From Candidatus Aenigmatarchaeota archaeon (GTDB lineage: Archaea; Aenigmatarchaeota; Aenigmatarchaeia; Aenigmatarchaeales; Aenigmatarchaeaceae): a stretch of DNA of 64,000 nucleotides. The stretch is from positions 1-64,000 of the forward strand of contig JAZDKZ010000001.1 of assembly GCA_043802485.1 (NCBI GenBank). The letters run 5' to 3'. Shown here one piece after another: positions 33,001 through 36,000 of the stretch. Made by a program: the position numbers. The stretch's first letter is position 1; every line of letters begins with the position of its first letter.

Positions 33001-36000
33001 AAATCCTGGAGAGCTGTCCCGATAAATGGTCTCAGCTTCATCGAGATACCTGAGAGCGAATCCAAGCTGAAGATATGCAAGATAGTCGACAAGAAAACTC
33101 TGAAAGGCAACAAGAACCAGTTGAACCTGAATGACGGCAGAAACCTGTTGACAGACAAAAAATATGCCACTTATGATTCGTTAGTATTGGAAATGCCAGA
33201 GCAGAAGGTTGTCGACCACCTCAAATTCGAAACAGGTTCAACAGTGGTGGTTGTCGGGGGAAGCAATGCTGGCAAGACCGCAAAGATAAAGACGATAGAG
33301 AAGGATAGGCTCTGGCTTGACAATGGAAGCGTCTTCGAGATACCAAAGGACTTGGTTGTTGTTGTCGGCAGAGAGGAGCCGCTGATAAAGATAGAGTGAT
33401 GATTATGAACGCTATGAGGAATATCAGAATTGAAAAAGTGACCATAAACATAGGCTGTGGAGAATCCGGGGAAAAACTAGACAAGGCCATAATGCTGCTT
33501 GGACAGCTGACCAGCAAAAAGATTATTTCCACAAAGACACATGGAAGAACAACTTTTGGTTCTGCCAAGGGAAGGCCGATAGGCTGTAAGGTCACGCTGA
33601 GAGGAAACGGCGCCAAAGAGTTTTTGGTAAAGGCTTTCGAGGCAGTAGAGAACAAGCTTTCGAAGAAAGTTTTCGACGCAACAGGCAACTTTTCCTTCGG
33701 CATAAAGGAGCACATTGACATTCCTGGGATGGAGTATGATCCTGAGATCGGCATCTGGGGCATGGACGTCTGCGTCACTTTGGAAAGGCCAGGATACAGC
33801 GTGAAGAGAAAGAGGCTTTCCAGAAAGGTCGGTAAGAAACATCTGATAAAGCCGGAAGAATCCTTGGAATGGGTCACAAAGAATTACAAGGTTGAGATTA
33901 TATGAGCAACGTAGTTTTCATTTCAATAATACTTATTGTAATCGGTATAGTTTTTGTCATACAAGAGTTTAGTATGAAGGAAGACGAGAAATATGAATTC
34001 TCGTTTACAGATAGTATAGAACCAGAGGAGCGCTTTGTGGCATGCGACAATGTTGACGATTGCTTCAAGTTCAAGGGATCAGCATGCCCAGCATATGCTG
34101 GCGGTACAGAGGTTTGTATCAACAAGAACTTTGTACAGGAATACAACTCGGTGATAGAGGAAAAGACAGGGCTGAACCTTGAGATAAAATGCCCTGGAAC
34201 AGACCTTTCAACCGACATGATATGTGAGTGCATAGACAAAAGATGCGTATTGACTGATGTGATATTATGATAAAGAAGGAAAGAAAATTCGGCAGAGGAA
34301 GCAGGTCCTGCAGACGCTGCGGTAGGCACGGAGGCCTTATAAGAAAATACGGCTTGCTCTATTGCAGGCAGTGCTTTAGAGAAGTCGCCAAGGAGCTAGG
34401 GTTTAAAAAATATTCGTGATAATTATGAAATTCGATTTACTATCAGACGTCATGTCTGCAATAAAGAACGGGGACAAGGCTGGTAAGAGCAAGACTATCA
34501 TGCCTTCATCAAAGTTGGTGAAAGAAGTCTTGCTTATTTTGCAAAAGCACAAGTACATCGGGGACTTTGAGTACATCGATGACAATTATGGAGGCAGATT
34601 CCAGATACAACTTATCGGAAAGATCAATGACTGCAATGCCATAAGGCCGAGGTACTATGCAAAGGTCGAGGACTATGAAAAGTTCGAGAAAAGATTTTTG
34701 CCAGCTGCAGGCATGGGCTTCATCATAGTCTCTACGTCAAAGGGCATGATGATACATTCTGATGCAAAGGAGAAAAACCTTGGAGGAACACTCCTTGGTT
34801 ACATATACTAGTGATTTTATGGAAAAAGCAGTAGAGATACCAGAAAAGATAGAAGTTGAGATTGAGAACTTCAAAGCAAACGTAAAGGGACCAAAGGGTT
34901 CCATGGAAAGAGACTTTTACAGCCCTCTTTTCAAGAAGGACATCACGATTAAAAAGGAAGACAGAGTGATAATCATAGCCACGGATTCCAAGAGAAGAAA
35001 AGTAAAGGCAATGCTCGGGACGATTGAATCGCATTTGAAGAACATGTTCGAGGGCCTGACTGACGGCTATACCGTTAAATTGAAAATAGTCTACATGCAC
35101 TTTCCGTTTACGATGAAGATGGAGGGAAAGGAAATATACGTGAACAACTTTTTGGGAGAGAAAAAGCCCAGAAAGACTAATATTGTTGGCGACTGCAAGG
35201 TCGAGATAAAGGGAGACGAGGTGACTGTGACAGGCATTAACAAGGAGGACGTTGGCCAGACCTCAGCAAATCTGGAGAGAGTAACCAAAATAAGGAAAAG
35301 AGATAGGAGAGTCTTCCAGGACGGCATTTTCAGATTAAAGTGATTTTATGAACAAACTAAAACTCAGGACAAAGCTAAAGAGAAAAAAGCCAAAGTTCGA
35401 GAGGCCGGGCGAGAAGACGTTCAAGAGGGTAAAGCATGGGTGGAAGAACCCGCACGGCAACCAGTCAAAGCTCAGAAAGCACAAAAAGTCTAGGGGCTAT
35501 TTGCCAAGGCCTGGTTACGGCTCGCCGAAGGAAGTTAGGAACCTTCATCCTTCCGGTTTCGAGGAAGTGCTAGTGCACAATGTAAAGGAATTAGAAAAGA
35601 TAGATACAAAGAAGCAGGCATGTAGGATTGCGTCCAAAGTCGGCAAGAAGAAGGGCTTTGAGATAATGAAAAAAGCCGGAGAAATGAAGATTAAAGTTTT
35701 TAACCCTTTGAAGCAAGAAGCTAAAAATGTCGAGAAGAAAGAAACAAAGAAGGAAAAGAAAAAGGTGTGATTATGTACCTTGTCGGTAAAAAAAGATGCC
35801 CGCATTGCGGTGTAAAGGGGAACTCCTGGAAGAAAGGTCTAGATGTTCTTGTATGCCCGAGTTGCAGCGTCTTTTTCAACGAGTTCGGTATAGTGCTTCA
35901 GCCCGAAACCAGCAAAAGGAGTTTATTTTTATGAACGTCCAAAAGAAGCTTGCTGCAAAGGTAATGAAATGTGGGGTTGAAAAGGTGTGGCTAGACCCGA

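Follow-up and report, generated by a model that had tools for sequence, protein, structure and literature searches.

The gene at positions 35773-35934 (+) of the window, as we call the whole 64,000-nucleotide stretch of an Aenigmatarchaeota genome that was analysed, encodes a 53-amino-acid C4 zinc-ribbon microprotein, named ZR here, that may be an optional, Aenigmatarchaeota-specific accessory of the large ribosomal subunit, putatively docking on a ribosomal protein, probably eL32. This assignment is put forward tentatively, with somewhat less than an even chance of being right. The sole link between ZR and the ribosome is gene order. Together with translational coupling, gene order makes a ribosome-related role plausible, and this much stands of the survey's finding, which had presented the gene as a candidate new ribosomal protein; a core ribosomal protein fits less well than an accessory, given the near-neutral charge of ZR, its lack of conserved basic residues and its repeated loss. 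In what follows, G000 is the genome of the window, other G numbers denote genomes, L numbers loci and f numbers families.

The open reading frame had been reported as a gene lying between eL32 and eL19 and overlapping the latter by an ATGA, and both statements were confirmed. ZR starts 2 nt past the eL32 stop codon (35770), behind a Shine-Dalgarno-like site (AGGTGTGA, 35763-35770, +) that overlaps this stop codon. A Shine-Dalgarno-like 4-mer was found ahead of 41 of 53 ZR starts, whereas 12.3 were expected and the maximum in 200 draws was 22. At the other end the ZR stop and the eL19 start share the ATGA at 35931-35934 (+), an arrangement that probably couples the translation of the two genes; a 4-nt overlap is present in 17 of 45 loci. 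Purifying selection was evident in all nine sequence pairs (pN 0.03-0.20 vs pS 0.29-0.95). The median pairwise identity of ZR is 0.45 within the order and 0.34 outside it, as compared with 0.52-0.53 and 0.37-0.46 for the neighbour genes. One match each was obtained in 35 of 41 relatives, and in 14 of the 15 that are at least 90% complete, in agreement with the single-copy status claimed before. That ZR is a true gene is established by the enrichment of Shine-Dalgarno-like sites, by pN values below pS and by four cysteines that all 54 sequences compared have in common; the gene is conserved, occurs in a single copy and has a ribosome-binding site.

The protein consists of a hydrophobic N-terminal strand (residues 2-4), two knuckles (C9/C12 and C28/C31), an F35-x2-F38-G39-I-V motif and a tail. 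The four-cysteine motif described in the survey was found with a corrected spacing: the window protein reads CPxCG-x14-CPxC, not CPxCG-x15-CPxC, with 15 residues separating the knuckles. C9, P10, C12, G13, W19, C28, C31, F38 and G39 are invariant in 29 sequences of the order, so that the seven positions listed earlier hold at this level and are joined by P10 and W19; phylum-wide, only the four cysteines are invariant. The first knuckle is CPxCG in most members (P in 52 and G in 50 of 54 sequences), the second motif mostly lacks the Gly, and the first Cys follows the start by 8-9 residues in 29 of 30 order loci. An aromatic residue occupies position 35 in 54 and position 38 in 53 of 54 sequences, and no K/R column exceeds 38 of 54; the conserved positions are Cys, Gly, Pro or hydrophobic/aromatic, and none is basic. 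The net charge has a median of 0 (<=0 in 34 of 54 sequences, median pI 6.1; +5 in the window protein), whereas nine zinc ribosomal proteins encoded by G000 range from +8 to +30. Of the 54 sequences, 45 have a negatively charged tail, 21 a penultimate Trp and 42 a final N, S or T. Near-neutral charge combined with conserved aromatic, and no conserved basic, residues is a composition that suggests a protein-binding adaptor.

AF2 models ZR as a small beta ribbon with a disordered tail (pLDDT 74). Structure searches with this model returned only generic ribbons (Foldseek best E 0.26, VIA best Z 3.0). In the ESM Atlas generic ribbons were matched at 0.93 by the window protein, and a second ZR member gave no usable named match. 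The window protein stayed below every Pfam and NCBIfam cut-off, and at E<=1e-3 no Pfam family was shared by more than 3 of 54 members, which bears out the earlier statement that ZR belongs to no Pfam or NCBIfam family and has only a generic ribbon likeness. The best match of the ZR profile in the PDB was eL43 (E 6.8e-5), restricted to the knuckles. As eS31 (74%) scored as well as eL43 (67%) against ZR in hhalign, the likeness appears generic; eL40 reached 11.7% over 17 columns. eS27 (7%), TFS (15%) and the lone TFB-like ribbon (33%) were rejected as specific relatives by the same comparison. These searches show ZR, as modelled, to have a generic four-cysteine ribbon fold.

ZR shares with eL43 (L37Ae) a CPxCG ribbon of the CPxC..CxxC type with the W/F-x-C and C-x3-F pattern, in which an aromatic residue stands two positions before the third Cys and a Phe four after the last. 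Unlike eL43, ZR is near neutral and has no basic N-terminal arm, and the profile match covers positions 4-36 only; with PRK03976 it scored 13.1 bits against a cut-off of 87, and an identity with eL43 was rejected. eL43 is a separate gene of G000 (G000:C1:98694-98918; net charge +17). In its acidic tail ZR also resembles Trm112 and LysW, small ribbon adaptors that act via protein contacts; LysW appeared at VIA Z 2.0-2.1. LysW uses its terminal Glu, which ZR lacks. Identity with Trm112 was rejected, because ZR has no PF03966 match and the places matched by PF03966 were other than those of ZR in all 6 genomes compared; Trm112 has a gene of its own, which passed the PF03966 cut-off in 69 of 100 genomes.

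In design ZR is like the C(P)XCG microproteins of Haloferax, such as HVO_0758 and HVO_2753, which have fewer than 70 residues, stand alone and carry two CxxC knuckles (PMC11241148, available part). It has what defines this class, i.e. at most 70 residues, a single domain and two C(P)XCG-like motifs. It differs from the HVO proteins in being a family of its own, in the F-x2-F-G motif and acidic tail and in its fixed place in a ribosomal operon, and it matched none of the HVO zinc-finger families above cut-off. The available part of PMC11241148 describes 49 C(P)XCG-type microproteins with varied roles in Haloferax; the second motif lacks the Gly in 30 Haloferax proteins, and several C(P)XCG proteins bind another metal or none. 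A further likeness is to aS21, aL45-47, aL48, aL49 and aS35, which are small, formerly unannotated and of limited range. According to the accessible text of the reports, aS21 is a zinc-finger protein on archaeal ribosomes (PMC12605026, 10.1101/2024.11.12.623245), and lineage-specific archaeal ribosomal proteins have been seen in cryo-EM maps (PMC12605026, PMC10516650, 10.1101/2024.11.12.623245). By analogy, ZR may function in the manner of aS21 or of aL45-49, which are lineage-specific. Unlike aS21, it has two knuckles, not four. An aS21-like gene, recognised by eye, is separate from ZR in G000, and its candidate protein carries only +4. A literature search yielded no ribosome structure or proteome for Aenigmatarchaeota and no description of ZR, the latter including the available parts of PMC9258230 and PMC13607799, although the tables of PMC9258230 may list the family unannotated. 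Judged by its sequence, ZR is an undescribed family and, by definition, an archaeal C(P)XCG microprotein.

In the window ZR is preceded by eL32 (35348-35770, +; Pfam PF01655, E 1.3e-35), which has a Lys-rich C-terminal tail, and followed by eL19 (35931-36350, +; Pfam PF01280 and PF25476); the gene at 34762-35343 (+) we take to be uL6, from its sequence and the operon order. Seventy ZR loci (the 30 best matches of the order and 40 hand-picked across families) were compared, and 67 remained after removal of three false ribbons. In 51 of these ZR has eL32 on one side and eL19 on the other, and in 11, which may go back to one event, it follows eL32 with eL19 absent there; altogether it stands beside eL32 in 62 of 67 loci from about 20 families. 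In one remaining locus the upstream side is cut by a contig end, and four have neither eL32 nor eL19; in one of the four (L093) ZR directly follows genes recognised by eye as uS12-uS7. In f11 (L067, L068) ZR is alone, unlinked from ribosomal genes, and in L065 ZR and eL32 are on opposite strands. A three-gene block uL6-eL32-ZR travels together, away from the spc operon, in f10, f14, f15, f21 and f30. Such detached blocks (L066, L070-L074, L081, L082, L088, L094) are often directly preceded by RNA polymerase large-subunit genes, with methionine aminopeptidase encoded close by, as judged by eye. Because eL32 is the neighbour kept when the operon breaks, it is the likeliest client of ZR. However, eL32 is separated from eL19 in genomes without ZR, too, so that the staying of ZR with eL32 may reflect the breakpoint.

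Inference from position is also weakened by the fact that the eL32/eL19 junction takes passengers. In several f1 genomes (L003:878-1500, L006, L010) a gene for a protein of about 206 aa, by eye a metallo-beta-lactamase-like hydrolase, lies between eL32 and ZR; it parts the two in all 3 loci of this kind that were translated. In all 4 f27 genomes checked (L272-L275) the place of ZR next to eL32 and eL19 is taken by uS3. Between uL5 and uS14 the window has a 122-aa ORF (33902-34270, +) that encodes six cysteines and, at the N-terminus, a membrane segment, and for which no Pfam family came above cut-off. Lys-rich C-termini of eL32 (window about 35705-35767) are common in lineages with ZR and nearly absent in f12, f16 and f23, a pattern confounded by kinship; the tails are kept in both f7 genomes that lost ZR, a point against the accessory reading. 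eL19 of the window has 139 aa and seems to have a linker some 10 residues shorter than that of the f9, f17 or f18 homologues.

The ZR profile of the order (A1) matched 151 of 251 genomes of the phylum and 63 of the 96 high-quality ones, the former count including a few other ribbons and weak matches beyond f16 being taken as scored. Matches were frequent in f21 (28/28), f14 (20/21) and f17 (21/25) and rare in f12 (2/15), f19 (2/14), f23 (0/5), f27 (1/7) and f16 (3/48), where the three matches, all inspected, were a different ribbon. The claim that the gene is kept across Aenigmatarchaeota was therefore too wide: f12, f16, f19, f23 and most of f27 are without it. A wider profile, run on 51 mostly ZR-negative genomes and G000, gained one true ZR (G087), the remaining matches being eL43-like or generic ribbons. 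The G087 gene (L250) is in place and has intact ends and a degenerate first knuckle, as in a divergent or decaying copy. Inside ZR-containing families ZR is gone from its place in G031 and G039 (f7) and in G113 and G188 (f17), and it is also gone in G121 and in four f27 genomes; the clade-wide retention expected of lineage-specific archaeal ribosomal proteins was not observed. Of 25 eL32 loci, mostly from ZR-negative genomes, 12 have eL19 no more than 100 nt downstream and no gene between the two. In trees of uL6, eL32 and eL19, f12, f16 and f19 group together (0.98), with f23; as they give the phylum no root, these trees accommodate gain as well as loss of ZR.

As reported, the family had 87 matches in a profile search of 1.84e9 representatives, and its named homologues are labelled Aenigmarchaeota, Aenigmatarchaeota or 'archaeon'. 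Eighty uL6 loci were taken from GTDB, and 38 of them came from records titled as other archaea and contained eL32 as well as eL19; ZR was between these two in 0 of 38, the genes abutting at -16 to +81 nt. L178 and L179, titled Nanoarchaeota, were excluded from the 38; two f1 genomes have exactly the same ZR. In two other phyla (17 and 41 genomes) the matches inspected (2/4 and 9/9) were eL43-like or generic, with no ZR among them. Within this comparison, which covered the GTDB uL6 loci and the two phyla and left out Nanohaloarchaeota, ZR was seen only in Aenigmatarchaeota. Its presence or absence can serve as a marker of clades inside the phylum.

According to the survey, eL40 could not be found in this phylum, a conclusion drawn from PF01020 negatives. 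When all small CxxC..CxxC ORFs of G000 were listed, an eL40 gene was spotted at G000:C3:9225-9398 (-), equal to L031:4226-4399. The 58-aa product scored 37 bits with NCBIfam L40e (NF003161; E 1.6e-9, cut-off 54) and 10 bits with PF01020 (cut-off 23). In a PDB profile search 8 of its 8 matches were eL40 chains (best E 1.3e-7), and its model matched eL40 chains with a Foldseek probability of 0.99-1.00, if at an E of only 6e-3. Its knuckles are 17 residues apart in 27 of 27 order sequences, as against 10 in solved archaeal eL40, and this loop is probably the reason why the protein stays below both cut-offs; in G000 the protein has, besides the loop longer by 7 residues, a predicted extra helix (residues 31-35). 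A homologue was detected in 36 of 41 relatives and, phylum-wide, in 236 of 251 genomes, including 95 of the 96 high-quality ones. PF01020 matched none of five genomes that all carry the homologue, so that its negatives were false. By homology, then, Aenigmatarchaeota have eL40 in a form missed by standard searches. For a nanohaloarchaeon, too, an L40e that had escaped notice has been reported (10.1101/2021.01.31.429008, available part). Since the protein falls below the family cut-offs, gene-content surveys wrongly score it as lost; that the long-loop eL40 explains such false losses is a firm practical by-product of this work.

With eL40 present, the suggestion that ZR is its replacement or diverged form is hardly credible. 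Both are four-cysteine proteins of about 50 aa, PF01020 misses the phylum, and of the 15 genomes in which eL40 was not matched 14 have a ZR match, the NF003161 recheck giving no eL40 in 5 of 5. Those 15, however, are all 80-90% complete assemblies, G000 has a separate eL40 gene, and eL40 and ZR occur together in 137 of 151 ZR-hit genomes, a co-occurrence that refutes the idea. ZR lacks the N-terminal helix and the C-R-K-C..L-R-P-K end of eL40 and is not basic: eL40 has five invariant basic residues and a net charge of +15, whereas ZR has no invariant Arg or Lys. Apart from the low hhalign score given above, NF003161 did not match ZR, and eL40 was absent from the best 60 PDB matches listed for either ZR profile. 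A core, rRNA-bound ribosomal protein in some other vacated site, perhaps an old eL43 paralogue, is improbable. The site could be that of eL20/LX, for which PF01775 matched 1 of 100 phylum genomes and 4 of 4 archaea used as positive controls, although this search could be a false negative, as Pfam was for eL40; eL43 is, moreover, the recurrent next-best profile match of ZR. In G000:C6 (L151:2411-3992) eIF6 abuts prefoldin alpha, by eye, and eL20/LX is gone from its usual place. Yet eL20/LX is missing alike from genomes with and without ZR, and the sole LX genome (G045) has ZR; with no complementary distribution, substitution by ZR was rejected. The charge of ZR and its repeated loss also speak against a core protein. 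Pfam confirmed eS31, eS24, eS17, eS1, uS15, eL15, uL16, P1/P2, eL34 and uL1 in G000, and eL43, eL42, eL37, eL24, eS27, uS14, eL30, eL33, eL8 and the aS21-like gene were recognised by eye, Pfam having been applied to 150 of 478 small ORFs and the remaining ribosomal proteins named by eye. As far as genes can tell, no ribosomal vacancy in the phylum fits ZR.

Nearly as likely as a large-subunit accessory is a C(P)XCG-type microprotein whose job is non-ribosomal, be it in transcription, in the handling of metals or in another complex, and whose place in the spc operon would link its expression to growth. The other passengers in the same operon and junction are in line with this, as are the lone ZR of f11, its opposite orientation to eL32 in L065, its loss in place in G031, G039, G113, G188 and G121, the generic fold matches and the varied roles of the 49 Haloferax microproteins. 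What argues against it is the position beside eL32, far steadier than that of the other inserts seen, the coupling to eL19 and an evolutionary rate near that of ribosomal proteins. If ZR is an accessory of the large subunit, it would be made in step with eL32 and eL19, its ribbon held together by a putative Zn ion. The conserved hydrophobic residues (2-4, W19, F35, F38, I40 and V41) are probably more than a 53-aa core buries and could form a docking surface, and the acidic tail, often ending in Trp, could grip a basic stretch of a ribosomal protein. ZR would bind protein, most likely eL32, and not rRNA; it might shield or position its client while the 50S is being assembled, and could then either leave or remain on the mature particle. 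A more specific reading, that ZR is a new ribosomal protein kept on the mature 50S of most Aenigmatarchaeota, aS21-like, by protein contacts near eL32, on a subunit that would lack eL20/LX and have the 7-residue eL40 insertion, is rather doubtful. In that case ZR would, to our knowledge, be the first ribosomal protein known to be confined to one DPANN lineage. If ZR does occur on ribosomes or their precursors, it is an addition peculiar to this lineage, in symbiont-like archaea whose usual hallmark is gene loss, and it gives in situ cryo-EM or metaproteomics a named target.

When 15 genomes with ZR were compared with 15 without it, the 30 being drawn from 46 genomes with an rRNA match, none of the segment lengths of the 23S rRNA tracked ZR, which counts against the accessory reading. 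Three small CxxC..CxxC ORFs of G000 (C3:7365-7652, C1:132833-133018 and C3:10476-10598) had no Pfam family at E<=1e-4, and the window encodes, at 5600-5770 (-), a stand-alone 56-aa ribbon that by eye resembles the N-terminus of TFIIB. The 23S rRNA genes (L284-L313) contain numerous insertions, 40-1000 nt long, at sites that recur; in G000 an insertion of about 225 nt lies close to the 3' end, and the segment near reference positions 528-702 varies from about 115 to 175 nt across families.
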